From Perna viridis (lineage: Eukaryota): a DNA stretch of 64,000 nucleotides. The stretch is from contig CM074517.1 of NCBI GenBank assembly GCA_037379345.1, positions 5,580,001 to 5,644,000 of the forward strand. Direction: 5' to 3'. Shown one piece after another: positions 3,215-64,000 of this stretch (the stretch's first letter is position 1; every line of letters starts with the position of its first letter). The translations under genes were made by a program, and so were the position numbers. The notes under the pieces are model-generated. The model had not been told where the DNA came from and made no database searches. It was given only the letters and a program-made list of their open reading frames with translations.

Positions 3215-4722
3215 AACCTAACTGAAGATGAAACATTATTATTAGCTAAGGGTCTCAATTTCTGCCCAGTTCCCGGTCCTGTACACGAAACCATCCTGAC
3301 CGAGGAACTTGACAACTTCGCCAGGTGTTTGAGGATATAAGAGTACTTTAGCTCAAAAGAGAGTGAGGGACAAAATGAGAGTGATTCAGTAGATGAAAAT
3401 AACTATCGGTTTATAAAGAAAAGTGAGTGGGTCCCTAAAAAGAGCAAAAATTTAACTTTGGAATCATTTATTGATAATGTTAAATCTGACATAATAAGAA
3501 ATGTAAGGGTCAACATAGAGAGTCACGATAATTTAACAATAGGGGAACGTGCTGCAATTCAAGGTCTAAGGACCAATGACAATATCATAATAAAACCTGC
3601 AGACAAAGGCAGCGCTGTAGTGAGCATGAACAAATCCGCCTACATTAATGAGTCCAAGCGTCAACTTAAAGATGACCGGTTTTATATCAAATTAACAACA
3701 GACCCCACTCAATCCATTGCGGAAGAAATAAAAACTGAGTTAAACAGAATGTACGAAAATAACCACATTGGCGTTCAAACTCTTGAATATCTCAAACCTG
3801 AAAATTCTAAACCTCTGCTAATGGCCATCCAACAGAGAAAATTTCGGAATTTTTGGACTTTCATCTATGTTGAAAAGCTTCCATTATTTATAAAAGATAC
3901 GACTAATTACTAACAGAAGATTCAGGCTCTGAATCCCCTTCCACCAAACACCACTCTGGTCACTATGGACGTCACATCTCTCTATACCAACATTCCTCAC
4001 TCTGATGGTATCGAGGCTTGTAGAGAAGTATGGGACTCTCGGTAGGTCAAAGTTCCACCTACTGACTGCCTAGTCACTTTACTCATAATGGTTTTAAAAA
4101 AAGAACAATTTTACTTTTAATGGAGACCATTATTTACAAATAAATGGCTATGGGTACCAAAATGGCTCCGTCTTATGCCAATATTTTCATGGGAAAATTT
4201 GAAAAAGAACTACTTGAATCCTCCATAGAAAAGCCTCTGTCCTGGTATAGATTTGTTGACGACGTGGATATGAAGTTAACATATGACAAAGAAGAACTAA
4301 ACAATTTTATCGCACGTGCCAACAATCAACATCTTTCAATTAAGTTCAATCACGAAACATCTGCTACTAACATCTGATTTCTCGATACCTCCAGCACCTT
4401 ATGGGGGAGAGCTATCCACGGACCTATACTCCAAACCAACTGACACACATCAATATCTTATGCCTAAGAGCTGTCATCCATCGCACCTGACTAAGAGTAT
4501 ACTATTCAGTCAAGCTCTTAGGCTAAGGCGCATTTGTTCAAATGACGAATCCTTAAAAAAACGTTTAGGTCAACTGAAGAACAATTTAAGAAGAAGGGGA
4601 TATAGATACAAGACCATAAAAGAAGGTTTTAAAAAAATCATAATATCCCAAGAAGTAGTCTGTTACAGTACAAGGCAAAGAAAAAAGAACCCCTTGTGTT
4701 CTAACATACCACCCTGCGTTAT
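3215..4722 (+). mobile_element. Penelope-like retroelement (Neptune-type RT), frameshifted and 3'-truncated before the GIY-YIG domain
   Basis: Motifs across frames: [92 protein letters not shown]. Multiple stops and frameshifts. Confidence 0.9.
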
Positions 4723-4724
4723 AA

Positions 4725-4830
4725 AAAACGACAAACTAATGTCTCACCCCTATGTTCCATTTTTAGTAACGGCGGCCATGGTTTTCGAAGAATCATAAAT
4801 CCCTATTGATATATGCAGGATATCCCAACG
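4725..4830 (+). repeat. Helentron/HINE-like internal repeat unit, copy 1
   Basis: Similar to 5852-5960 (gtct.ac.cctatg.tc.atttttagtaa.ggcggccatg.ttttcga.gaatcataa.tcccta). Confidence 0.55.
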
Positions 4831-8934: not shown

Positions 8935-10317
8935 ACGATGATTGTGATTTACCGTCTATGTACTGGATTTCTAAACTCCACAAGAATCTATACAAAGAAC
9001 GTTTCATAGCTGGATCTGCAAAATGTACCGCCAAACCTCTTTCAAAAATTTTAACTGCTATACTCACAACTGTCAAAGAGGGTCTGCAGTCCTACCACAA
9101 CACTTGTTACTCCCGTAGTGGTATCAATTCAATGTGGATTCTGAAAAAGATCTTTTGGAGACAATCAGTTTAAGACTATTATCTAAATATAATAGCATTA
9201 AAACTTATGATTTTTCAAAACTGTATACTTCCATTCCCCATACTCAGTTAAAATCCCGACTTAAAAACATTATACATCGTTGTTTTTCCAAAAAGATGGT
9301 ACGCCTAGATACAAATATATAGTTCTTGGTAGAGATTCCTCATACTTTGTAAGAAATAATTCCAAATAATCTTCCAAATATACAGAAGATGTTTACAAAA
9401 TGCTGGAATTTTTAATCGACAACATATTTGTCCAGTGTGGTGGACGTGTTTTTCAACAAACGGTCTGCATTCCAATGGGAACAAATTGTGCTCCTTTACT
9501 TGCGACCTATTCCTTCACTCTTATGAGACTGACTTTATAGTTGATCTGATGAGAAAGAAAGAATATCGTTTGGCTAGATCTTTCAATCTCAGTTTTTGCT
9601 ATATAGATGACGTATTATCTTTAAACAATCTTAATTTCGGGGATTTGATACATCGCATCTACCCAAAAGAACTTGAGATAAAAGATACTACAGACACTGT
9701 GAAGTCAGCCTCATATCTTGACCTACACTTAGAAATCGATGGTAAAGGAAAATTATTGACCAAACTTTACGAAAAACGTGATGACTTTTCATTCAGAATT
9801 GTCAACTTTCCTTTCATCTGTGGCAACATCTCTTCGGCACCTGCGTATGGAGTGTTCATATCACAACTCATACGTTATGCCAGAGCTTGCCGAAACTACG
9901 CAGATTTTTTGTATCGCGCTAGAACTGTAACAAATCGGCTTCTGGAACAGGATTATGTTGCTACAAGACTGAAGTCATCACTACAGAAGTTTCATAGTCG
10001 TCATCATGAACTTGTGGATCGTTATGGGTCATAGTTTTCCTTTCTTCCTCGTTTGTCTACCCCGGACTTGACTTTTTATGAGCAACTCGACCGGTGTTTC
10101 TAGAAAAGCAGAGGACGCTTATCCTACCGATGCACCTGGTCCATGCTCCCAGTTTTTAGTGGAGTCCGAGTTGCTCATTTGCTTTTGTTACTTTGTATGT
10201 ATGATTTTAGTTACTTTATGTTCTTTGTTGTGTATGTCTGTTTTCCATGTTTGGTCTTTGTCCCTGGATTACATTCTTTTGATTACCGCTATAACCTTGG
10301 TTCCCTTGATTACTCTT
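8935..10317 (+). mobile_element. Naiad-type PLE: RT domain plus 3' terminal repeat (pseudo-LTR), degenerate
   Basis: LPSMYWISKLHKN..ERFIAGSAKCTAKPLS, KTYDFSKLYTSIPH, IPMGTNCAP, YIDDVLSLNN, IYPKELEIKDTT, ASYLDLHL, IVNFPF..NISSAPAYGVFISQLIRYARAC. The RT ends the protein with no C-terminal endonuclease. The terminal repeat spans 10030-10317. Confidence 0.9.
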
Positions 10318-10329
10318 TGACGACAACGA

Positions 10330-11451: not shown

Positions 11452-13565
11452 GAAAAACAAAGAAAATAAAATAACTAAAATAACACATACAAAGAACCAA
11501 AAGTAAATGAGCAACTCGGACGCCACTATAACCTGGGGGCAGGGACCATGTTCACCGGTAGGATAAGCGTCCTCTGTTTTGCAAGAAACATCCATCGAGT
11601 AGCTCATAAAAAGACAAGTCCGGGCTAAACGAAAGGAAAAAGGAAAACAATTACACATTGAACAAACCAATTTTCATGGTGCAGATGGATACACCACAAT
11701 GATCCACGAGTTCATGATGACGACTAATGAACATTTGTACTGATGACTTCAATCTTGTAGCAACATAACTCTGTTGCAGACCCCTAATTGTAAGAAGTCT
11801 AGCGTGGTACAAAAAGTCTGTGTGCTTGCGGCAAGCCTTGTCATAACGTATACTTTGTGATATAAAAATTCCATACGCAAGTGCTGAAGGGACAAATGGA
11901 GATGAAAGAAAAGTTGACAGTACGGAATAAAAAAATCATCACGTGTGTCGTATAGTTTGGCCAATAAATTTTCTTTACGATCAATCTCTAAGTGTAGGTC
12001 AAGATATGAGGCTGACTTTACAGTGTCTGCAGTATCCTTTATCTCAAGTTCTTTGGGGGTAGATGCGATGTATCAAATCCCAGAAATTAGGATTGTTTAA
12101 AGATAATACGTCATCTATATAGCGAAAACTGAGATTGAAGGACCTAGCTAAACGATGTTCTTTCTTTCGGATTAGATCAGCTATAAAATCAGCCTCATAA
12201 GAGTGAAAGAATAGGTCAGCAAGTAGAGGAGCTCAATTTGTTCCCATTGGAATGCAGACCGTATGTTGAAAAACGCGTCCACCACACTGGACAAATATGT
12301 TGTCGATTAAAACTCCAGCATTTTGTAAACATCTTCTGTATATTTGGAAGATGATTTGGAATTATTTCTCACAAAGTATGAGGAATCTCTACCAAGAACT
12401 ATATATTTGTATCTAGGCGTACCATCGTTTTGGAAAAACAACGATGTATAATGTTTTTTAACTCGGGATTTTAACTGAGCATGGGGAATAGAAGTATACA
12501 GTGTTGAAAAAGCATAGGTTTTGATGCTACTATATTCTGATAATAGTCTTGAACTGATTGTCTCCAAAAGATCTATTGAATTTCTTTAGGATCCACATTG
12601 AATTAATACCACTACGGGAGTAACAAGTGTTATGGTAGGACTGCAGACCCTCTTTGACAGTCGTGAGTATAGAAGTTAAGAAGTTTTGAAAGAGGTTTTG
12701 TGGTACATTTTGCAGATCCAGCTATGTAACGTTGTATGTATGAATTCTTGTGGAGTTTAGGAACCCAGTACATAGACGGTAAATCACAATCATCGTCTTT
12801 GGTAGAGAGACCAATAGAGGTTAGCACCATTTCTTCTTTGGAGAGTGTGGTAGCAGTATTGGTTTTATCACTGCTATTACTTTCTACGTCTACCTCTGAT
12901 AATAGATATTGTATGCAAAACGTTGTGCGAACGAAAGAATGTTTTTTGGGCTTTGTCTGCTGGTACGACAGCATATTATCATGTATAGTAGACTATGTTT
13001 TTGCTACATTGGGGTCTTTGAAAACTGATGTAGCATTGGCACTCATTGACGTACTTAAAACTTTCATTCGTTTCAGAATTAAAGACCTCACGGCCTTTAA
13101 CCACTCTGACAGAGAATCAATGTCTTCTTGTTCTCGTTTTATCCATTTTCTTCGGTATTCCTCCACGGCATCCATAAGAACTTTAAAGTTATAATTCCAA
13201 TTTATGGAGCGTGGTTCACGGTACTTGGGACCTTTAGAAAGGATATTATGCAGAGATTCGTTTTTGATGATGGACAAATCTCCCGTAACGACGTGACAGG
13301 AAGGACCATATTTGAATTGAGAGTTTTTGCAAGAACAGTCATGTGGTTTAGCCTTGAAGTCCTCAATTTCGAGGTTCTGCAATGGCCTTTTTTAATTGAA
13401 AATGTTGGATGCAATGGGTGAAGTATAGGAATATGAAATAATTGGTATGGATTTGTCTTTGAAATATGGGCGAATGTTGTTGGTAACGTTTTTGTGATGG
13501 AGGGTGTTTTTATTAATTAATCGTATCTATACCTTTGTTGACAAACGGTAGTGGAAGAAGGTCTT
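11452..13565 (-). mobile_element. Inverted Naiad-type PLE copy: CxC linker, RT and terminal repeat
   Basis: KPHDCSCKNS..CHVVTGDL (CxC linker), LSKGPKYREPRSINW, LPSMYWVPKLHKN..QRYIAGSAKCTTKPLS, KTYAFSTLYTSIPH. Terminal repeat at about 11452-11660. Reverse complement of 8935-10240 and 10950-11450. Confidence 0.9.
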
Positions 13566-15306: not shown

Positions 15307-15469
15307 ACCGGTGCACCTGGTCCATGCTCCCAGTTTTTAGTGGAGTCCGAGTTGCTCATTTACTTTTGTTACTTTATATGTATGATTTTAGTTACTGTAT
15401 TTTCTTTGTTGTATATGTCTGTATTACATTCTTTTGATTACCGCTATAACCTTGGTTCCCTTGATTACT
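15307..15469 (+). mobile_element. Naiad-type terminal repeat, 5'-truncated
   Basis: accggtgcacctggtccatgctcccagtttttagtggagtccgagttgctcat...ccttggttcccttgattact, near-identical to 10126-10314 apart from an internal deletion. Confidence 0.9.
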
Positions 15470-22429: not shown

Positions 22430-23409
22430 TCTATCATACATATCATAATAACAAGTCTTCACAATGCAATTGTCTGTATTCATCGGCTTAAACCAATAGT
22501 TAATTATTTATTAATATTTCTTTATAAACATTGGAAAGCTTCCAGGCTCTCAGTAAACTATATAATTAACTGTTGATGTCCTGACTTTCAAGATTCGTTT
22601 CATAAAGTTAAAATGTACCTTTACAATATCATCTGACTTTTGATGTCCCCACACTTCATGTGCACAGTATGTAATAATGACAATAAAGTTTCATGATTAA
22701 ACCAATCATCATGAATTTTGTTATTCAAACTAATCAAAGCTTTTCTATCCCGATTGGCTAATATCTTTTTAGCATGGGCTAAATAACCGTTACAATATAC
22801 AAATGTAAACAATTTTATCGTACGTTTCATTAGGATTATCATTTATAAACCACTTTTCGTCAGTCTTCACTACTCCTCTATTTCTAAAAGCAACATATTT
22901 TTTTGGCAAATGTATGTTCAAACCATATTCCACAATCAATCCTATTTTGTAACTCAGTAATACTCTCACTAAACAAAAGAGAGTCGTCGGCATACATAAT
23001 AAGAAACAGATCTAACATTTTAGTTCATATGGTTGACATCCTTGTCTTATCAGTTTAACTTCCATATCATTAACATATAATAAATGTGTGATAAAGTTTC
23101 CCCTTGCATGAGGCGAATACTGCAATTGAACTATACTTACACCTGCAAAATACTTGCGTTAGTTTTTTCTTGCAAATTTTTATATTTTTTATCTTGAAAA
23201 TTTTGTAATTTAACCTTATTCATTTGTGTGTCAAAAAATCTTTTTAATAATTAAAAAAAAATTGTACATCACTTCAAACACTATTTGCTCATTGAAAATA
23301 ATTATTTCTGTAGAAAATAACCCCCTAAAATGAATTTCAATAAAAGCTTATAAAATGATACATGAAACGTCATTTTATTTATTAACACATTGTTGATTCT
23401 TATTACCAG

Positions 23410-24488
23410 GACCTGGACTAGATGATTCACTAACTGTTGAATTGAGTAAGATGCTATTTGATTTGATGGCAAAAAAGAAGAACGAACGTGCATTGCTTGT
23501 CAACCCTCGTAATGTGTTCTCTCCAGAGTATTTGTCATTTATCATATATGGTCAAACCGTTTTAAGCGTGGTTTCCATTATTATATTAGTGTTTTTGCAT
23601 TACTTGCTCTGGGAGCCAAATTTTTTTAAAGTGTATGGCCTAATGTCATTGTATACATCAATGGACCTGATTAATCTTACCATAGAAAGCTGTCTTAATG
23701 CTGCAATATACTTCCGCGGGAAGGAATATATAGAATTTGATTGGTGTTACCCTTATTTAACCGTTCAAATTGCAGTTCCTTTGTGTTTGTGTTTCTGTAG
23801 CCAATGGTTAAAGGTTGCACATGCGGCGCAAAGGATGGTGATTGTTTACTTCCCTATGACATATACGCGTTATTTTGACAAAAGGAACATAGTCATTCTG
23901 ATGTGTTGTGTTATAATGCTAGCACTGACGATAGCTGGTGTACATATTTGGAAATTGTCTATACAAAAAGTCACTATTCCAGACAAGGAAGAACTGGAAT
24001 TTGTTGACGTTTGTATATTTGGACATAAAAGGATGAAAGATAGACGTCTTCGTGGGGATACCGATGTTCTTGCAACAACTGTTATTGCTCTTATACTAAG
24101 CGAAGTATTGCCACTGTTTATTATGTCAGTTTTGTGTGTAATGATGATCAAAAAGATCCGAAAACAGAATTTGTTTAGACGCCAATTCTTGAAATCTGGA
24201 GAAGCCCTTGACAATACAGACAAGTTGCTTGTTATATTAACTTTAACCACATTATTCACTGTTGTTTCCTCAGTTCCAAGAACTGTAGATTACATGATTT
24301 CAATCGCCACCGAATTGGGCGTTACTACAGCAGATAAGCGTAGTATCATTCAGATGATTGACAGAGTTTTACGTAACTTTTCTTCATTTGTTATATTCAT
24401 ACTGTATGGAAAACTATCAGGAAAAGTCCTGCAGACTTTAAGACAAATATTTAATTGGGGGAAAGCTAGCAGTTTTGGTACCAATTAA
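23410..24488 (+). CDS. Terminal coding exon of a divergent class A 7TM GPCR, sex-peptide/MIP-receptor-like (paralog B)
   Basis: Intact 348-aa ORF, colinear with paralog A (NPR, LHYLLW, MSLY, GKEYIEFDWCYPYL, QWLKVAHAAQRM, PMTY.RYF, KIRKQNLFRRQF, SSVPR). In-frame phase-1 acceptor ttcttattaccAG at 23408-09. An internal ATG at 23451 is an alternative start. Confidence 0.88.
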
Positions 24489-34560: not shown

Positions 34561-34865
34561 CGTCAATTAAAAAGGCAACTGATACACTATCATCTAACCA
34601 AATCTAGAATCTGAATTTTACATTGTTCATATAGTACATTTAAAATCGAAAGTTTATAATAACCATGGTGAATCGTGCTGTTAACCTCCCCTTTCTCACT
34701 GACAATAAACTAAAAACGTTGTCAGTGTATTGGGAATACATATCATAGCTGTCGTGCATGCGATTTGTACACTGACTTTCTTAGTAAAGCGAGGATAATG
34801 TGGAAAAAAAACATTATAAGACACGGGCATATCTAGGCTTGATTGATACCATTACAGCATAAATT

Positions 34866-35531
34866 ACTACAGACACTGTGAAGTCATCCTCATATCTTGA
34901 CTTGCACTTAGAAATCGATGGTAAAGAGAAACTATTGACCAAATTTTACGACAAACGTGATGAGTATTCATTTAAAATTGTCATTTTCCTTTCATCTGTG
35001 GCAACATCCCTTCAGCACCTGCGTATGGAGTGTTCATATCACAACTCATACGTTATGCCAAAGGTTGCCGAGACTACAGCAGACTTTTTGTATCGCGCTA
35101 GAATTCTAACAAATAGGCTTCTGGAGCAGTGTTATGTTGCTACAAGATTGAAATCATCACTACAAAAGTTTCATGGTCATCATCATGATCTCATGGATCG
35201 TTATGGTATATCCATCTGCGCCATGAAAACTGATTGGTTCAACGTGTCATAGTTTTCCTTTCCTCTTTCGTCTACCCTGGACTTGACTTTTTATGAGCAA
35301 CCCGGCGGGTGTTTCTAGAAAAGCAGAGGACGCTTACCCTACCGGTGCACCTGGTCCATGCTCCCAGTTTTTAGTGGAGTCCGAGTTGCTCATTTGCTTT
35401 TGTTACTTTGTATGTATGATTATAGTTACTCTATGTTCTTTGTTGTGTATGTCTGTTTTCCATATCTGGTCTTTGTCCCTGGATTACATTCTTTTGATTA
35501 CCGCTATAACCTTGGTTCCCATGATTACTCT
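34866..35531 (+). mobile_element. 5'-truncated Naiad-type PLE (RT C-terminus plus complete terminal repeat)
   Basis: SSYLDLHLEIDGKEKLLTKFYDKRD...KFHGHHHDLMDRYGISICAMKTDWFNVS*. Terminal repeat near-identical to 10030-10317. Confidence 0.92.
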
Positions 35532-37504
35532 TTCATCATATTGTCCATGTTGTATTTGCATGAATCGTTTCTTTATTCCGCAAACACTTTTTAACAATGG
35601 CGTTGGGTTCTGATGTCTCTTTATTGCCCTGTTGTTTTGATGCTTGTAAATGTTTCTTTTTCTTCATTAAAGTTTCTTTTTCGACGACGAATGAATTATG
35701 TTCATGTTTTGGAAATAATTTTGCAATGGTCAGTTATAACACCTTAATTGACGTATTGCCGACATGAAATGTTTTTGTTATCGATTTGCATCTTCGTCCA
35801 TGAAGGGATAATTGGTAAGTATTTATTTAAAAGGTCAAATGTTTTCTGAGTGATTTTCAGACTTTTAATGTAAAGCTGGGAAAACGTACTTTTTAAGAAC
35901 ATATGATTGTAAAAATTTGAGGTCAACTTAAACATCAGGCTATGTGATAGTACGTACATCAATACGAATAACTCGTACGAAAAAAAAAGAAAATGTGTGA
36001 ATAATAAATGCGCTTAATTTTGTACAATAAAACTTGATTTTTTGACTTGATTCACGTATAAATGCTTGATAAATGCATTCAAGTCATCAGAAGTGTGTAC
36101 AAGTAGTATTTTAACCCTGTATAGATTAGACTGGTTATAAAGTAAGCTATGTTTCTGTTTTACATTGTTTACATTGACTATTTATTGATTTGTTTCCCTT
36201 GTGTTAATTTTACTTTTGCAGTATGTTCTTCTCATTCAGCAAGAGTTTTACCTCACTTAATTGGCTATCTTATATAATTTCGGGCTCTTTAAATTTGAAC
36301 TTTATTTTCATGCTCCCTTGATTGTAACTATGTATAGAAGTGATTTTGCGTGCTCATAATGTATAGATAGTGTATGACATGTACTTTATGAAGTACATTA
36401 TATAAGTTAAACGTGATGATTTTCAATTTTCTTGATTACATATCGTGCACAAAATGTAATTTTCTTTAGAATTCTAAATTTAGTAGCATTTTTTATATAA
36501 CTGTGTGGGTGTTCAAAGATATTCGAATATGTAGTTTTACCTTTGGGAAAGATTGAACGGAACTACTAGCTTTTGTTTGCCACTAATTGTCGCAAGTAAA
36601 ACAGGATCTAGAGCAGATTTTTTTCAAAGCAGAAAGAACCGCTTATAAATCATTTTTATGAAACAGCAAAAATATATATATATAGTAATAAACAGGAAAG
36701 GAAAGAAAACGATTGGAAATTTAATATTCTCATACAAATTGACTCTTCTCAAAACCATGTTTTTTTTTCAGTCGCCCCTTTTTTCTGACCAGGAAGCGAA
36801 ACAGTAAACCATCTCCATCATTAATCTAACCGATATGAAAAGGGAAATTATATAATATTTGTTTGTAATTCTCCCCATAGAACAATATTCAAAGGTACAA
36901 TTAATGAAATGCACGAATGTGCGTAAGTTTGATGCATTAAAAAGTGTTAAAGCAATGAAATAAGGAAATGCCATATTAACAACATGAGATTATTTCTCTT
37001 TTTATTACATACAATGGGCAATTTAGATTTAATAAATACTAGTAATTAAGACCCATTCGCCTAGTTTATGGTTCTATTAGAGTCGAATTGGAACATTTCA
37101 AAGAAAATATTGATAGTAATAGTATCGAATTCACATTAATCTAAAACTTAATTGTCGTGAATGTATTTCTAAATCCAAGTAATATCTGAAAATGAATTTA
37201 ATTTATTTGAAAGCTGTCTCTGCCTTTTTTACTAATTTTATTTGTTTTGCTCGGTCGATGTTGTCAGTTGAATCAGGCACAAATTATTTTTGATTCTCAT
37301 TGATCTGATCAGCTGTTATTTCAAAATAAACAGAAATAAGGCCTAAAAGGCCACTACATGTACATGTAGATTCAACTGGATTTAAATTCGTTCGGTATGT
37401 AAATATAAGAAGAACTGAATTAATTTACAAGTGAGAAAAAACTTTAACCCTAATCTTTTAAATAGATTCAAATAAAGGATCTATAAATGAGTAGATTTTC
37501 ACCA

Positions 37505-37700: not shown

Positions 37701-38910
37701 GAATGGTTTGTTTATCCTATGAGTATTTTTGGTATTGCATTGGGAATTTTTACACGGTTATGGAAGTGCAAGAGTAGCATGAAATCCAACCTCAATTGGT
37801 TTGTCCCATTCATCAAATCAGATAATTGTGTTTCATAACAGATGCTTCTACCAAACCTGTTATTATCCAAATGAACAGCACAATCGCCATTCATCATAGT
37901 GAGCTCTATTACCTTTATGATAAATCTAGTGCAAAAAGGTACGCAAAGGTTTATAAAAATAATCAATTTTAAATCTTCTTTGGTTAAAAGTGCACTTAGC
38001 CAACAATGCCTTACACTCTATATATTAAATGTCCTATCTCATTGTGGCCAGTTAAGTAAATGTTCTTGCATATTTTTGGCTTGTACGAATGAACGAAACC
38101 TGGGTGTTTTAATTGTTAAATCTGTAAAAGGAAAAGCCAAGCAGTTGAAAAGACTGCTGAGAATTAGATAACTTTTTTGCAATGCAAATGGTTTCCGTTA
38201 CATGTCTGCTGTTTTTGTATGACCTCTTCGACCTTATCTATGAAAAATCTGATAATTGATCTACTTACTACTGGTCATGGTTAATATCCGGTGTCGCTGC
38301 AACTCAGCCAATTACATGCCGGAAATGAAAAGTTTTGCGACAGTCGAATCAAATACCGGCATATGATGATAGGAAAATAGAAAACGTGGATATATAACAA
38401 AGAAACGGAAATTAGTGTTAACTGACTGAAGTCGGACGATCAACAAAACATGAGGTCCAATCAACGATGATTTCCGCTTCAGTGTAGAATGGTCTGCTGC
38501 TTGAACATACGACAAACACTTTATACAAAAGAAAGGGAAATTTGGTCATGTGTACGTATTTTGCTAGAATACCTGTCATGTAAAAATGAATTTATATATC
38601 ATTATTTAGATGTAGCTGATCTAACTGGCCCAATATCAATTATATAGCCTATAGGCTTTACACGATTTTTTTTCTGATGTTATTCGAAACTCACTTTAGA
38701 CAGCTGTCTTCGATATTGCAAATTATATTTTGCGATATTACAGAGGAGGTGACTGACTGGTCTATTTGTAACGGTAAGAAATGGAGGACACGAACGTATG
38801 TGAAGCTTTACCGTTAACAAATCAAATATACTTTTTATTGTGTAATCATGATATTGTATTTCTATTACAAGTGTAGATCTCATACATATATATATAAATA
38901 TATATACAAG

Positions 38911-39699
38911 CGTCTCAGAATGTAACGACTATTCGCTACACTGCTCCATGGGATCAAATTTATACAGGGAAGATAACGTAAACTTATAGAAGAGTCTGAA
39001 AAATTCCCAACGATGTTAGAACTGTCAAATTTGCGATGCAAATTTTTTGTCGTTCCCTCCGCGGGACTCGAACCGTTGTGACATCTATGGCAAAACCGCC
39101 TGCACTATGTCCAGCGCCCTAGACCACTCGACCAGCTAGGCTATGTAAAAATATAGCTTTCGCTGACCGGGTCATTCCTCCTCGTAGGATTAATCTAGGG
39201 CTCTAACTCAGTACACGATGTAAGGTAGTATGGGACAGTTTATCTAGATGTTATTATGTAGGATAGAGGATCAAATTAATGATGCATGTCACAACAAATC
39301 AATATTATAAAACGTCTCAGAATGTGACGACTCTATTCGCTACACTGCTCCATCGGATCAAATTTATACAGGGAAGATAACGTAAACTTATAGAAGAGTC
39401 TGAAAAATTCCCAACGATGTTAGAACTGTCAAATTTGCGATGCAAATTTTTTGTCGTTCCCTCCGCGGGACTCGAACCGTTGTGACATCTATGGCAAAAC
39501 CGCCTGCACTATGTCCAGCGCCCTAGACCACTCGACCAGCTAGGCTATGTAAAAATATAGCTTTCGCTGACCGGGTCATTCCTCCTCGTAGGATTAATCT
39601 AGGGCTCTAACTTAGTACACGATGTATGGTAGTACGGGACAGTTTATCTAGGTGTTATTATGTAGGATAGAGGATCAAATTAAAGATGCATGTCACAAC
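38911..39699 (-). mobile_element. Tandem dimer (period 402-404 bp) of a tRNA-derived element next to a (TA)n tract
   Basis: 38911-39295 and 39313-39699 are nearly identical. (TA)n tracts at about 38886-38906 and 39907-39921. Confidence 0.85.
39054..39142 (-). pseudogene. tRNA-Leu-like Pol III head (second copy 39458-39546); not a canonical tRNA
   Basis: Minus strand shows A-box/D-arm TGGTCGAGTGGTCTAGGGCGCTGGA and B-box GGTTCGAGTCC. The acceptor and anticodon stems do not pair. Confidence 0.7.
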
Positions 39700-42840: not shown

Positions 42841-43888
42841 TTTTGTTATCTTGCAAAATATAAAGCACGCTCTCTTTATTTCCAACTGTTATATAATATT
42901 ATTCCAATTATTATAAACTCAAAACAGGAAGAAGTAAAATTGACTTGTAATTTATGATTTATTCACTGCGCTGAGTAGATTACTTAAAATGCCAGTAGTT
43001 GACATGTTACCCTTGTGTTGCAAATTGAATAAACCTAGAATATTATTTTGCACTCAAGTAACAATAAACACGCTTGGTACATGTGACACGATTAGTCGAA
43101 TGTGAAATTTCACGTGTTACATCACTGTCAAAAGTATCCCTGAAGAGAACCATATTAACTACAGTGATAAATCAAGCGTGATTTGAAAGTTCTAGTATTT
43201 TTTTCTTTTATTTCGCTACAATTGTTAATTTTATAAAATGCACTAAACTCTTTAAACTTAAGTCATTTTCCCTACTTTAGTGGATGCATTTAAACCTATA
43301 AAATTTGCGCTGCCTATTTTGTTAAAAACTGCTACCTGCTGATCTATGAATTATAAAATTTTTCTATATTTGCTATAATTGAGTTTTTAAACTACATTCG
43401 ACTTGACACTATTTAACAAGAAGAAAGTAAAAATGACATGGGAATGTCCTTATAAATATGCAGACTATATTTGATAACATTTTATTACAGTTTAAAACTT
43501 AGAAATCAAAGGAAGCCCCTTTCATTTTGTTCTAATTTCAATGCTCTTATTCCTTCAATATTAAATAGATTATATAAAAATGACCCGTTTAAAAATACAA
43601 TGTTGTACATTGCTTTGGTTTTCTCTTTTATTCTTTAGTACTGTAGTATGGTGTTTTTAAATAGTTGTAGACTATAACATATAACACTCATTCCTTACAA
43701 TTTAATTTTACGTTAAAATTCAACGAGAAAATCATTAAAAATGTTGATGACGTCATAGTCAAATTACAAAATTCGGTCTATGAGATGATGGACATGTTTT
43801 TCCAACATGCATGTTACTGCTGAAGTATTGTATATTACATGTTTTATTGGTAGTTACATAAATTGATTTGATTGACACCAATTACAGA

Positions 43889-44410
43889 GGAGCCCCGTGC
43901 AGGTCCCGGTGTTAAAGAATAGGTCTGCAGCAGCGCTGTCGTAAAAGGCGACTAAATAGTGCTCAGGAACCTAGCCAAGGGCTAGGCGCTCTGCCCACAG
44001 AGTAACTGGGATGTTTGCCCCAGGTGGTGGAATGAGATACCCCTGGCGTGTTACATGCTGGGGTTGTCAGGCTATAATACGGAAAACCTGACCGCAAACC
44101 ATAGTGGTGCACCGTGTTGGGAAAGATGCCACGTTCCTCGCACGTTAAAGAACCCTGCTGTGGTATTCGATAGGAGTAGGAACCTTTGCGCTCCACCACA
44201 GGAGGCTAAATTGCCCGACCTTACCCATCCTTCCCTTTTTATAGTGGCAATCAAAATATTTCGACCCTATAACCCTTGTGTCCCATCCTTTTTTTCATTT
44301 CATCATCATTCATGTTCATTTTATCATCCATTTCACGTTCATTGTCTGAAAATAGCTGAAATATTGCTGCTCGGACGTTAAACTCCAACAATCAATCAAT
44401 CAATCAATCA
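43889..44410 (+). mobile_element. SINE-like retroposon with (CAAT)n tail and structured non-tRNA 5' end
   Basis: GC-rich 520 bp. Body contains gcacgttaaagaaccc (Meta-domain-like, from memory). 3' end atagctgaaatattgct..cgttaaac..(caat)n. Imperfect 10-bp TSD caattacaga (43879-88) and caactacgga (44409-18). Confidence 0.8.
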
Positions 44411-44867
44411 ACTACGGATGATTAGAAATTGTTATATTCTGAGTATATCAACTGTTATAAAAGTTTTAAGAAACTGATAATACATCATCTCAACCAGAGC
44501 AGCAATTATTTTAAACACTCTTCATTTGGTTTATTTCTGTTTACATATGAAACGTAAGTCAACGTGCAACTGATACATCGTAGACTTCAGAAGATTGTAC
44601 TAAGATTTAAAACTGTATCACTTGTCAATCAGGTTCTCACTAAATACAGCATTTACTGACGCAAGTGTTTTAATGGTGTGAATTTATTTTTTCTTAATGT
44701 CCGAAAAACTTCCTTATTTCCCCTCGGTCTATTTTCAAGTATTTTAAAGTAATTTGTCTGAGACTATGTTTTATGGTTCCTTACGGAAGTAAATCTCGAA
44801 TTATGTAGAAGCAGTGAAAAGATTAAGTTTCTTTAGTTACCAATTTGAAAACTTTTTATGTGATTAA

Positions 44868-49561: not shown

Positions 49562-49977
49562 CAAGTCATAGTTTTCCCTCGTTTTTATCTGGTGTGTGTA
49601 AGTTGACAGTTTTCAAGTCATAGTTTTCCCTCGTTTTTATCTGGTGTGTGTAAGTTGACAGTTTTCAAATCATAGTTTTCCATCGTTTTTATCTGGTGTG
49701 TGTAAGTTGACAGTTTTCAAGTCATAGTTTTCCCTCGTTTTTATCTGGTGTGTGTAAGTTGACAGTTTTCAAATCATAGTTTTCCATCGTTTTCATCTGG
49801 TGTGTGTAAGTTGACAGTTTTCAAGTCATAGTTTTCCCTCGTTTTTATCTGGTGTGTGTAAGTTGACAGTTTTCAAGTCATAGTTTTCCCTCGTTTTTAT
49901 CTGGCGTGTGTAAGTTGACAGTTTTCAAGTCATAGTTTTCCATCGTTTTTATCTGGTGTGTGTAAGTTGACAGTTTT
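49562..49977. repeat. Homogeneous minisatellite, 52 bp x 8
   Basis: Unit caagtcatagttttccctcgtttttatctggtgtgtgtaagttgacagtttt, with starts at 49562, 49614 and so on. Confidence 0.97.
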
Positions 49978-52900
49978 CTCGTTTTCTTGGCAACATCTTT
50001 GATATCAGAGATGTTCGACAAACCTGAAGCGTACAAGTTATATGAAGTTCATCGTCCTAATAAACATCATTACGGATATTTTTACTTTAAATGTATTTTA
50101 TCTCTCCAATAAAAAGTATAAATGTTTTCACCTAATATAGATGCCAATGGTTGCGCCTTTTACCTTAGTTAATCGGGCCTTTTACCTTAGTCAAAACACA
50201 CAAGGGCAATGGTCTGTCCGAAAATTTTTAACCCTAATTGAATAGTGTTAACAACTAATTATAACATCAACACACACTCTGTAATGAAATATTCTAAAAA
50301 GTATTGTTCTTATATCTTAAACTTTTAAAATATTGCGATAACTTTGGTCTCGTATACAATTTACTTGAGAAACTTCCTTAATTCTTGGTTAAATAGCTGC
50401 TGATGAAAAACGTGTAAATCATACAAAAATTTACAATATGTTTAGGATTGGTATTTTTGTATTATGGCAGTCATCTGTCATTCAATGTTCTCGTTTCTCA
50501 TTAACATGAAGTAATTACCTGTAGACTAAGTTTCTAGTCAAATTTATCAAAATCGTATACGATTAGGATAATTTGACTTAAAAAAAATCCTATGGAGATT
50601 GCTTTCTATCGATTTTAATTCGAATATAAAATTTCTTTGGTCATGCTTTCGAAGGAATGGTAGTTACGCGATGTATTGATAGTGACATTTGTCTCTTTTA
50701 AAGAAAACACCCATCTTAGAATAATATTTAAAATAAAAATAAGTGGATTTTTATTAAGTGATTATGGTCACTTTTTTCTTAAGAGAAACTTGTGGTGTAT
50801 ACAGGACAGAAATGTATGATACAAAGAGACAATAAGTTACCATAATAACATTTTTTTCAAATCTATAAATAAGATATGTTATGTTGATATGACATAAATG
50901 TACCTTTTGATACGATAAGAAATTTTTTGTCATTTATTCACTATTCATGGTCGACTATTAATGTCCTTGATAAGACTAGATTTAAAACCACAAAAGAACT
51001 TTTAAACATAAACATATCTAATGCATTTGAGGTCTATTTATCTTAACGTTTCATGATGTTTCCATCACGCGTGCTTTTCATTGACTATCCCAATGTTTAT
51101 CTTTTTTATCATCTTCGTAATCAACTTTTCATAGCGAAATCGCAAAACGACACTTAAGGGAAATAACTTATTCAATTTTTAATACAAAAACCTAATACTG
51201 TTTCTTTTAGGATTGTTGGCTGCTTATTATGTGAGCGTATATATACTTTAAAGCATTACGAACAAATTCATATAAGCTTTAATTAAGGAACAAAGGAAAA
51301 TTCATATAAGAGTTATGATGGAATGAAACAAAAACCTTTTTTTTTTTGGTATCTTAATTTCTGTATTCCTTTCTGGTTAATTCAAAATTTAAAACTGTGT
51401 GAGACGAATAGATAACTTGGACGTTATAACCAGAGAATGATGCTTTTCACTATGAATGTACGCGATGGTTACACATCTAATGCAAGGACATAGTATTTAT
51501 CTCGTCCGATTATTTTTATGGCTGAAAACATCTGTATGACAAATCCTTAAAAAAATAACAGCCTTTTCAATGCATAATATCAGTGTGCCTCGTTTTCACA
51601 TCATTAAATCACCCAATAGAATAAAGTAAAAACAACATTAATGTTTCGTAAAGAAATTAAAGGTACAAAATACATTAGAATTTCTGTAATGTGTATCATT
51701 GTCTTATAGGCAGTTGAAGGACGCATCTCAAAGAGTTAATCCAGAATAAACGACAATAAAAGAGATAATATCAACAATATCAATTACTTAGCAATAATGG
51801 AATCACTCGTTAAAACATTCAGAGCCATTCAGAATTGCTTTCGTAATTACTAAAAGATGTAAAGGAATAGCATTAAAAAATGTCTTTCAACAGAATAATA
51901 ATTTCAGTTAAAGTCAGATTCAGATATGGTTTAGAACATAAATCTTAAAAGTGAATGTAATTATTTAACGCGAATCCCATTATATAGGCAGAACCTATAA
52001 TAATAGTGCAAACATTTAATTCAGCAGTGAGTGTTACATGCAGCAATGCCTTTCATTCTGACATATATAAAATAAAAACATTGTACAAAGAAAAAGTCAA
52101 CCTACAAATAACCGATTTTATATACTACCAATTTTCAAGTTCATCTTTTACGTAGTAACAGACTAGAACAATGGTTTGTTAGCTACTCTACTTTTCTGTT
52201 ATGATATAAATGAAACAAAATATCCCATAAATGTCTTTTTTTTTTCAATTCCAAAAACTCAAACAGTAAAAAATATAACACATGTACATAAATTTGAACT
52301 TCACTGTCAGAGATATTTCTGATGACACCATCTAAAATTTGCAAAAAAATCCTAACAACAAAAAAGGTTTGGCGTATAAAATGCAATAGCCTACATTGAA
52401 CAGTTAATGGTGGCATGGTCATACTTGAAGTAGCAAGCAAAATAAAAACTGGCAATATTTTTTACTTTTAAGCTAATAATGTGCTGAGAATATGTCGACC
52501 TACAGGCAAACCGATTTTGCTATTTTGCGCAACCTATTGTCTACCCAACTTAGGTGAATGTGTAAAAAGTATATTTCAAATTTGAATAGTATTCTCGATT
52601 CGTAATGTTACTTTATGCCAATTGTTTAAAAATATAGTATTCAACATACTGTAAGCTTCGAAATCGTATCGCGGACATTCTGATATTTTTACTTGTGTAA
52701 ATAATATATACATGTATGCAATCACACGTCTCTATATGTTATAGACTTCCACAGTTATGCACTTTAAATCATCATATGGAATTAATTTCATATTTTAAAA
52801 GATCAAACAGAATGGGATTTATCAAAGAAATAGAGAATTCCTCGTGGGTTTTGTAATTTAACCTTAAATACACTGTATGAACGTGGACATTTTAAGAATG

Positions 52901-62269: not shown

Positions 62270-64000
62270 ATCATGGCACCTTCAGAGAGAAGACACAGAG
62301 AACGTTATCATACTGAAGAGCACACATAGCACCTTAAGTGAAGCCAATAACAGTGTCATCATACTAAGAATGAGACAAGGCACCTTCAGAGAGAAGCCAA
62401 AACGAACGTTATCACACTAAAGAGCACACATGGCGCCTTCAAAAAAGTCGGAAACAACATCGGCATTACCGAGGAGAATATGGAACGTTCATAGAAGCCA
62501 ATATCAACGTTAGCATTACTGAGTGGTAAATATGGTACATGTACCATCAAAGAAACTAAAACCAACGTCATCAATCTGAGGAGACGAAACCAACGTGATC
62601 GTATTGAGCAGTTCACACGGCATATTCAGAGAAACCAAGACTAATAACAGAATTAACAAGAACACAAGGCACATTCAGAAAAGCCAAATGCAACGTCCTA
62701 ATATTGACACCCTTAGGAAAACCTAAACCAGCGTCATCCGACTGAGAAGTACACATGCTCCACAGAAGCCAATACCAACGTCATCTCTACCGAGGTGTAA
62801 ACATAGCATATTCAGAGAAGCCGAAGCAAACGTCATTGTACCTGGGGAATACACATGGCATCTTCAGAGATTAAATATGCCAAAACTAACATCATGATAC
62901 TGAGGAATTGACATAGCACCTTCAGAAAAGTCTAAAACCAACATCACTATACTGAAAAATACTCATGGCACCTTCAGAAAAGCCGTTACAAAAATCAGCA
63001 TTATCGGGGAGTACACAAATACACAAAACACTTTCAGAAAAGCCTTAAACAACGACATCATACTGAGGAAAACACAAAACACTAAACTGGCGTCAGCTTT
63101 TCCGATAACAATTCACATTCAGAAAAGCCAAAACCAACGTATCGTACTGGGGAGTACACATGACTCCTTCAGGGAGCAGAAACAAATATCAGCATTTCCG
63201 ATGAGTACACATGGCACCTTCAGAGAAACCGAAACCAACGTCATCATACAGATGAGAACACAAGACTTTTCCAGATTAGCCGAAACCAACGTCGTCGTAC
63301 TGAGGAGTACACGCGATCCTTTCATAGTATTTGAAACAACGTCATTATATTGTGGAGAACACATGACACATTCATAAAACCCTTAACTGGCATTAGCATC
63401 TCCGAGTACACAATTCACATTTAAAAAAAACAAAAACCAACGTCATCGTACTGAGGAGTACACATGGTACATTAAGAAAATTCTAAACCAACGTAATCAT
63501 TACTGAGGATTACACATAACACCTTCAGAGAAGCCGAAACCAACGTCGTCATCTTTACTGGGGATTACAAATGACACCATCAGAGAAGCCGAAACTAACG
63601 TCATCATTACTTCGAGATGCACATGACACCCTCAAAGTAGCTTAAGTTAACACCATATTACTGAGGAGTACACATGACGCCTTCAGAGAAGCCGAAACCA
63701 ACGTCATCTTCACTGAGGAGTACACTTGACGCCTTCAGAGAAGCCTATGTCAACGTCATATTACATAGGAGTACACATGTAACCTATAGAGGAGACAAAA
63801 CAAACGTCACCAATACTGAGGAGTACACATGGAATATTCAGAGAAGTCAAAACCAACGTCGTCGTACTGAGTAGTATACATGATCCTTTCAGAGTATCTG
63901 GAAACAACGTCATCATACTGTATAACACATGGCACATTCAGAGAAGCCTAAACTAGAGACAGAATTTTCGAGTACACAATTCACATTCAGAAAACTAAAA
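62270..64000. repeat. Satellite array with ~51-bp monomer, running off the window end
   Basis: Consensus acacatggcaccttcagagaagccgaaaccaacgtcatcatactgaggagt, about 33 diverged copies. Confidence 0.92.

Follow-up and report, generated by a model that had tools for sequence, protein, structure and literature searches.

A predicted double pseudoknot heads a tRNA-less SINE of Perna viridis, recurs near the 3′ ends of small viral genomes and may block 5′ exonucleases

For the RNA of SINEs that have no Pol III head, the 2016 paper describing such elements offered the idea of a promoter. A retroposon of this kind lies on the forward strand of the window analyzed here, i.e., the whole stretch of 64,000 nucleotides of AT-rich animal DNA (GC 29–39%) from contig CM074517.1 of Perna viridis. 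It spans 520 bp (43892–44411), is flanked by target-site duplications (TSDs), ends in a (CAAT)n tail and has no tRNA head. Its 13-bp left TSD (43879–43891) is identical at 10 of 13 positions to the right one (44409–44421), which overlaps the tail by CAA. The preliminary description had correctly noticed both an imperfect TSD and the tail, which we locate at 44389–44411 (5.8 copies); however, it gave the TSD as 10 bp and the start as 43889, whereas a 13-bp TSD ending at 43891 places the first base of the element at 43892. The body and LINE-type tail (43964–44388) show multi-copy depth across the whole stretch, and the coding potential of the element amounts to just one 131-amino-acid stop-to-stop frame. 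The element is abundant, with 46,881 and 30,196 contigs of two runs aligning to this stretch; in two runs, 6,672 out of 10.35 million RNA reads and 11,085 out of 12.86 million align to it. The 64-kb window contains no second copy.

As had been proposed, the start of the element carries neither an A nor a B box. In a search with the Pol III A- and B-box patterns, the sole A-box-like match, at 43972, fits one relaxed pattern only and depends on two bases that are GG in most family copies, while a B-box-like match with one mismatch lies deep within the element, at 44258. ARAGORN found no tRNA between 43000 and 45000. A head of about 70 bp, TSDs, short tandem 3′ repeats, the lack of a tRNA or Pol III start, multiple copies and a non-coding sequence together constitute the hallmarks of the LP-SINEs. 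These were named by Matetovici 2016 (PMC4758252), whose text and supplement describe a head of ~70 bp common to SINEs of scallop, oyster, abalone and periwinkle and to the LINEs Nimb-17_LMi, I-3_DR and RTE-9_CPB, which either precedes or substitutes for tRNA-derived heads and was suggested, though not assayed there, to be a promoter. By eye, the scallop heads in its Supplementary Figure S2 share with the window head a C-run, GCAGG, AGAA and CGTAAGAGGCGACTAA, and the homology to Nimb-17 was likewise judged by eye from the “Nimb-17 homology” rows of that figure; additionally, the body 11-mer CACGTTAAAGA is present in the snail SINE bodies of supplement 4 of the same paper. While sharing with the LP-SINEs of PMC4758252 the tRNA-less head, the TSDs and the short tandem tail, the window element is longer than the 255–256 bp given there. 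It is a new LP-SINE member, whose head sequence had already been described and whose fold is corrected here. The main text of PMC4758252 mentions neither the word “pseudoknot” nor a viral occurrence, and that of a 2024 bivalve SINE survey (PMC11481361) contains neither “ribozyme” nor “pseudoknot”. We did not find the fold or its occurrence in viruses in the literature searched, which excluded most subscription journals, Repbase and Dfam, such that an earlier description is possible.

The first 72 nt of the retroposon are predicted to fold into a double pseudoknot, namely an H-type pseudoknot and, after it, a hairpin with a loop that reaches past an invariant GUCG-UAARAGG-CGAC hairpin to pair, in the order S1, U, S2, S1′, a loop ending in AGAAUA, S2′, X, Y, X′, U, the P4 hairpin, UAA and Y′. 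The 5′ strand of S1 (GCCCCG, 43892–43897) supplies the first bases of the element: the TSD abuts it, contig joints enter at 43892 and 43893, and conservation in four other families begins at the same R as the window S1. A single U, loop L1 (43898), forms a nearly invariant column of the alignment and leads into the 5′ strand of S2 (43899–43905), the 3′ strand of which (43922–43928) is backed by both partner swap and alignment. Between the two lie the 3′ strand of S1 (43906–43909; CGGG in the family, with a C at 43907 here) and the conserved AGAAUA (43916–43921), which the alignment places at the end of loop L3. The 5′ strand of X (AGC, 43929–43931) was recognized from a loose-end consensus and the inserted letters of reads and contigs, and X covaries; its loop furnishes the 5′ strand of Y (43932–43937; AGCGCTA in the family), to which the partner-swap tests apply. 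P4, as U-GUCG-UAARAGG-CGAC-UAA, occupies 43937–43955, and the 3′ strand of Y (43957–43963), which pairs with 43932–43937 in the minimum-energy fold, ends the head.

The evidence for this fold is comparative. In a structure-blind MAFFT alignment of 12 rows that were chosen to be diverse (6 from animals and 6 from viruses), 89.8% of the 215 cells in S1, S2, X and P4 are paired (Y was left out of this count), with 45 two-sided changes, and the covariation score is 0.557, as against 0.197 after shuffling (0 of 500) and no more than 0.134 after sliding. Two-sided changes are seen at 7/7 pairs of S2, 3/4 of X, 1/3 of S1 (which is 83.3% paired) and none of P4. The constancy of P4 is partly by construction since its stem was the search pattern; in a loop-free P4 search, the 8 true copies among 46 matches still had AAGAG, AAAAG or ATGAG as the loop. 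The remaining 38 of these matches, as well as L127/L132 and L188, have no upstream pseudoknot and were taken as chance. When partners were swapped among 22 rows in fixed windows, none of 5000 permutations equaled S2 or X and 135 of 5000 equaled Y; with weighted scores on 24 rows, the corresponding counts were 2/10000 for S1 and 0/10000 for both X and Y. The weighted-score test of S2 is partly circular, with the register being each row’s own best helix and several registers misplaced, and the unbiased test of this helix is the fixed-window swap. Among the seven viral rows alone, Y is not significant in fixed windows (1663/5000) and weak with weighted scores (340/10000), and S1 stands at 588/10000. 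Of 107 copies, 72 have T-A and 22 have A-T as the central pair of Y. Family F2, with 57–142 nt inside the loop preceding AGAAUA, keeps a mean of 5.3 of the 7 S2 pairs (15 of 29 copies scored). The 76-mer folded by itself is stable only at chance level (z −0.79), making single-sequence folding uninformative.

These results uphold the earlier idea of a pseudoknotted RNA in place of a tRNA head, and the letters quoted for it all lie where they had been placed; nevertheless, two of its four helices were wrong. The stem 43899–43905/43922–43928 and the gtcg/cgac hairpin are backed across families, and the proposed + strand agrees with one pair that reads U-G in 6 rows of the 12 and C-G in another 5. 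In contrast, an outer stem from the ends of the head is 46.7% paired versus 44.3% in shuffled rows, with 8706 of 10000 permutations as good, and a pseudoknot of cggtgtt with agcgctg is equaled by 3718 of 10000. The latter is built on two changes private to the window copy, C43907 and the junction of a 6-nt loss. About 97% of the family depth (reads and contigs) has G at 43907, and the six letters absent from the window directly before 43937 are carried by 450 and 1,109 RNA reads and by 112 and 105 contigs. With this deletion went GCT, the partner strand of X, and having lost that helix, the window copy is probably dead.

The motif had been linked to other invertebrate retroposons, and we indeed recover it widely: in one sixty-fourth of a metagenome collection, a 19-mer matches 122 loci, from which we estimate ~8,300 overall. 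We sorted 109 of the 122, partly by hand, into four families with varying bodies, none of which resembles that of the window element. As to a precise 5′ end, which the preliminary description had singled out for checking, conservation starts sharply at R-C-C-C-C-G, being 61–91% at R and 30–47% upstream of it (one column reaches 64%) in the 90 anchored of the 109 copies, and, in the 18 copies with TSDs, 7 of these end exactly at R and the other 11 within 3 nt. Given this sharp start and the TSDs at or near R, the head is no truncation; a truncated tRNA-headed SINE was rejected, as the upstream sequence is unconserved and the TSD adjoins the head. Moreover, the long loop inserts of F2 leave the 5′ end unmoved, indicating that DNA spacing does not set it. 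A lone extra G, as a copied cap would leave, is seen in only 1 of the 18 TSD-defined copies, which weakly favors the nuclease block proposed below.

Several individual loci deserve mention. L035 (645–800) has two tandem heads, the first of which is devoid of the 3′ strand of X, and a scallop row of Supplementary Figure S2 of PMC4758252 likewise shows one head ending immediately ahead of a second. In L067, L059 and L080, the segment after the head looks tRNA-derived by eye, as in scallop MESC SINEs; ARAGORN found no tRNA in 5/5 loci. In L183 (1476–3045), the head is followed, after ~330 nt, by a 387-aa frame with a weak zf-CCHC match (E 0.0044), and an autonomous LINE probably begins here, in host DNA within a symbiont genome assembly. 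Altogether, seven prokaryote genome records (L178–L184) include animal-type SINE copies, some at contig ends fused to bacterial genes, which we read as animal DNA in the assemblies (contamination or chimeras). L026 (1255–1413) contains a long near-perfect inverted repeat unrelated to the head, with spurious microRNA matches.

Beyond animals, an 18-mer matches 10 viral contigs, in 8 of which the upstream pseudoknot is complete, with AGAATA and an S2 of complementary strands. Chance matches are without it: a shorter pattern yields 97 matches, and of the 87 that do not have the final TAA, none is preceded by an exact AGAATA. With a sequence model derived from 15 non-viral rows, the 8 viral motifs score 25–48 bits, to which the shared 18-mer contributes, since L127 obtains 23.9 bits from it alone. 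Seven of the eight contigs are small and represent six distinct genomes or segments, five with RNA-virus Pfam domains: a Peptidase_A21 capsid segment with a shared arrangement in two data sets (L124 and L130), an RdRP_4 virus (L126) and three RdRP_3 viruses (L128, L129 and L131), two of them with VNN or S-domain coats; L123 is a small unclassified viral contig. In these six, the motif is always sense to the last ORF, 5–204 nt past its stop codon, and in the small contigs it lies 14–119 nt before the contig end. The eighth occurrence (L125, 1450–1535) is between two genes of a 212-kb contig of an AT-rich DNA virus encoding an NAD-dependent DNA ligase, and the motif is not followed by a SINE body. 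A second copy in tandem is found in both L123 and L129, scoring only 9–10 bits, and the variant upstream copy in L129 (1375–1445) has P4 with one additional G-C pair and a different loop letter, showing that P4 can vary. At least two of the viral copies, L124 and L128, have no helix Y. Annotated phages gave 4 weak matches (E 0.8), and the contig L138 stays unclassified, its protein being without a Pfam or PDB match. The presence of the motif in viruses without a DNA stage implies that it acts as RNA and not only as a DNA promoter; any of the functional outcomes discussed below would make it a functional RNA module that passes from viruses to transposons or back.

What might such an RNA do at both the 5′ end of a retroposon and the 3′ end of a viral genome? 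As the head is put before tRNA heads or replaces them, it has to supply the RNA with its 5′ end, and a block to 5′ exonucleases would satisfy this demand along with that of being of use in a viral 3′ UTR. Hence, the reading we favor, if only tentatively, is that the head may stall Xrn1/Xrn2 and so cut SINE RNA out of host transcripts. A host read-through transcript containing the element would decay 5′-to-3′ until the two stacked pseudoknots and the invariant hairpin halted the nuclease at the first base of the element; the promoter-less SINE RNA would remain, ready for the reverse transcriptase of the partner LINE, and in viruses the same block would yield a small 3′ non-coding RNA. The analysis shows the motif with its covarying stems, a 5′ boundary that falls sharply on the first helix and a place behind the last viral stop codon; the nuclease resistance, the read-through origin of the RNA and the small viral RNA are inferred. 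P4 is probably a binding site for a host protein or a part that docks onto the fold, neither of which a purely mechanical block explains.

As reviewed in 2021 (PMC8374639), known viral xrRNAs (flavivirus 1a/1b/2, tombus-/luteovirus and benyvirus) require a pseudoknot, sit in the 3′ UTR and often come in tandem series, so that they share with the head a pseudoknot at the 5′ edge, the location and the tandem copies. The head differs from them in matching no Rfam family, having no three-way junction and tolerating long insertions in L3; the last of these fits badly with the tight ring of 15–16 nt that the review gives for xrRNAs, with L3 admitting up to 142 nt. The strict sequence conservation of P4, which is more typical of a binding or active site, also speaks against a block. 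An ordinary H-type pseudoknot is not known as a barrier to Xrn1. With just 14–119 nt after the viral motif, the protected RNA would barely exceed the motif itself, a placement that suits a 3′ functional element equally. The two RNA-seq runs show no read-start pile-up, i.e., no site where a fifth of the depth begins, a weak test since most reads are clipped at the deletion of the window copy and such libraries blur 5′ ends. If the nuclease block holds, it would open a new route to retroposon RNA. The review just cited notes that cellular xrRNAs were still to be found, and with a degree more reserve we suggest that the head could be a many-copy, genome-encoded cellular xrRNA of invertebrates, of a new exonuclease-blocking class mobile between RNA viruses and animal genomes, which replaces the retroposon promoter and derives SINEs from the decay of host transcripts.

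The canonical HDV ribozyme has the helix order P1-P2-P3-P3′-P1′-P1.1-P4-P2′, with a P3 stem after the 5′ strand of P2 and the L3 consensus CCNCG. The HDV-like ribozymes of R2, RTE and L1Tc (Pr77) resemble the head in size (~75 nt), in their double pseudoknot, in the start of the element at the first helix, and in a hairpin with UAA and then a closing strand after it. A new kind of self-cleaving ribozyme, cutting just 5′ of the first helix in the manner of these, is a serious though rather doubtful alternative, and one that would define a new catalytic class. In its favor, the element starts exactly at the first helix, some unpaired bases are invariant, a peripheral loop is free in length, and LINEs of two clades begin with these 70 bp as well (PMC4758252); 5′ ribozymes are reported from six LINE clades (PMC5786205), and RNA viruses are reported to have ribozymes in their UTRs, though only exceptionally in the 3′ UTR (PMC13725137). 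However, a cut there would, by inference, remove the last 80–270 nt of the six small viral sequences, the usual site of replication signals, the tandem heads persist in L035, and the invariant hairpin is ~45 nt away from the supposed cut. Nor does any Rfam family match: the window head gave nothing at E up to 10 (HDV, twister, pistol, hatchet, hammerhead and others), so that the ribozyme families suggested earlier are not recovered, and 11 animal and 9 viral loci gave no match to the head at E up to 5. The covarying order S1-S2-S1′-S2′-X-Y-X′-P4-Y′ bears out the preliminary view that it departs from HDV, with other nesting, no P3/L3 hairpin, no P1.1 and an occurrence in viral 3′ UTRs. P3 with L3 (CCNCG) is absent from the window copy and its pattern is present in 9 of 129 copies, of which 8 use unconserved flank bases as P3; thus, the likeness of RCCCCGU to HDV L3 was dismissed as chance, given that S1 and its partner vary together and a P3 is not formed. 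Self-processing, possible as it was when first raised, is not the best reading because the motif is also near the 3′ ends of RNA viruses.

That place suggests another precedent, the TSS of turnip crinkle virus, also 3′-proximal in a tombus-type genome, in which an H-type pseudoknot is stacked with a second one closing around a hairpin, the loop of a hairpin pairing past the next (PMC5336357). The head might comparably bind the ribosome or an initiation factor, serving as a viral 3′ translation enhancer, a translation entry site in LINEs and a ribosome tether in SINEs, in effect mimicking a tRNA in the place of the tRNA head; the 5′ end would then be set otherwise, for example by an overlapping promoter as in Pr77. 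The helix order, the invariant hairpin, the motif near the 3′ end of tombus-like (RdRP_3) genomes and the head before the zf-CCHC frame of L183 fit this proposal, which we nonetheless think unlikely: by itself it does not explain the exact 5′ boundary, Y is absent in L124 and L128, and the likeness is one of helix order only; P4 is a 4-bp hairpin where the TSS, in that account, has the long H5 of −21.8 kcal/mol (PMC5336357). Compared with the TSS described there, the head is also smaller (72 versus ~100 nt) with a short and invariant P4, has its A-rich stretch inside L3 rather than upstream, and is found in animal retroposons. The published proposal of an internal Pol II promoter acting as DNA, with incidental pairing, can cite the head at the 5′ ends of both LINEs and SINEs, the polyadenylation-like hexamers ahead of the tails (PMC4758252) and an excess of first-mate-minus reads, 2- to 4-fold over the others at 43932–43960, which are sense provided that the library preparation was the usual stranded one. 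Nevertheless, we deem it quite improbable in light of the covariation of the stems, the insertions of 57–142 nt within the head and the motif in viruses that have an RNA-dependent RNA polymerase and pass through no DNA stage. Finally, were the viral matches chimeric assemblies or an idle capture of host SINE RNA, the fold would serve the retroposon alone. Contamination does occur, with SINE tails in at least L178, L179, L180 and L184 of the seven prokaryote-genome matches; however, each viral copy has its own compensated stems, all are sense, behind the last stop codon and without a SINE body, and L124 and L130 show the same arrangement in two data sets, leaving this the least credible account. 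These readings can be combined with each other, and each functional outcome would account for an unannotated 3′ element of tombus-like, toti-like and tetra-like viruses.

Elsewhere in the window are two related intronless 7TM receptor frames with Srx/Srw-like Pfam matches (670–1734 and 23397–24488, both on the + strand). A dispersed repeat family, which by eye we take to be Penelope-like, occupies 8935–10318, 11456–13559 and 34865–35533, with shorter pieces at 15307, 17974, 19917, 26923 and 44867; its pieces have no Pfam match, and it includes broken reverse-transcriptase-like frames (9360–10034), with 3341–4798 having a similar look. Tandem arrays are present at 38897–39699 (404 bp, 2 copies), 49562–49978 (52 bp, 8 copies, 96%) and 62272–63953, the last consisting of diverged units of 51–53 bp.
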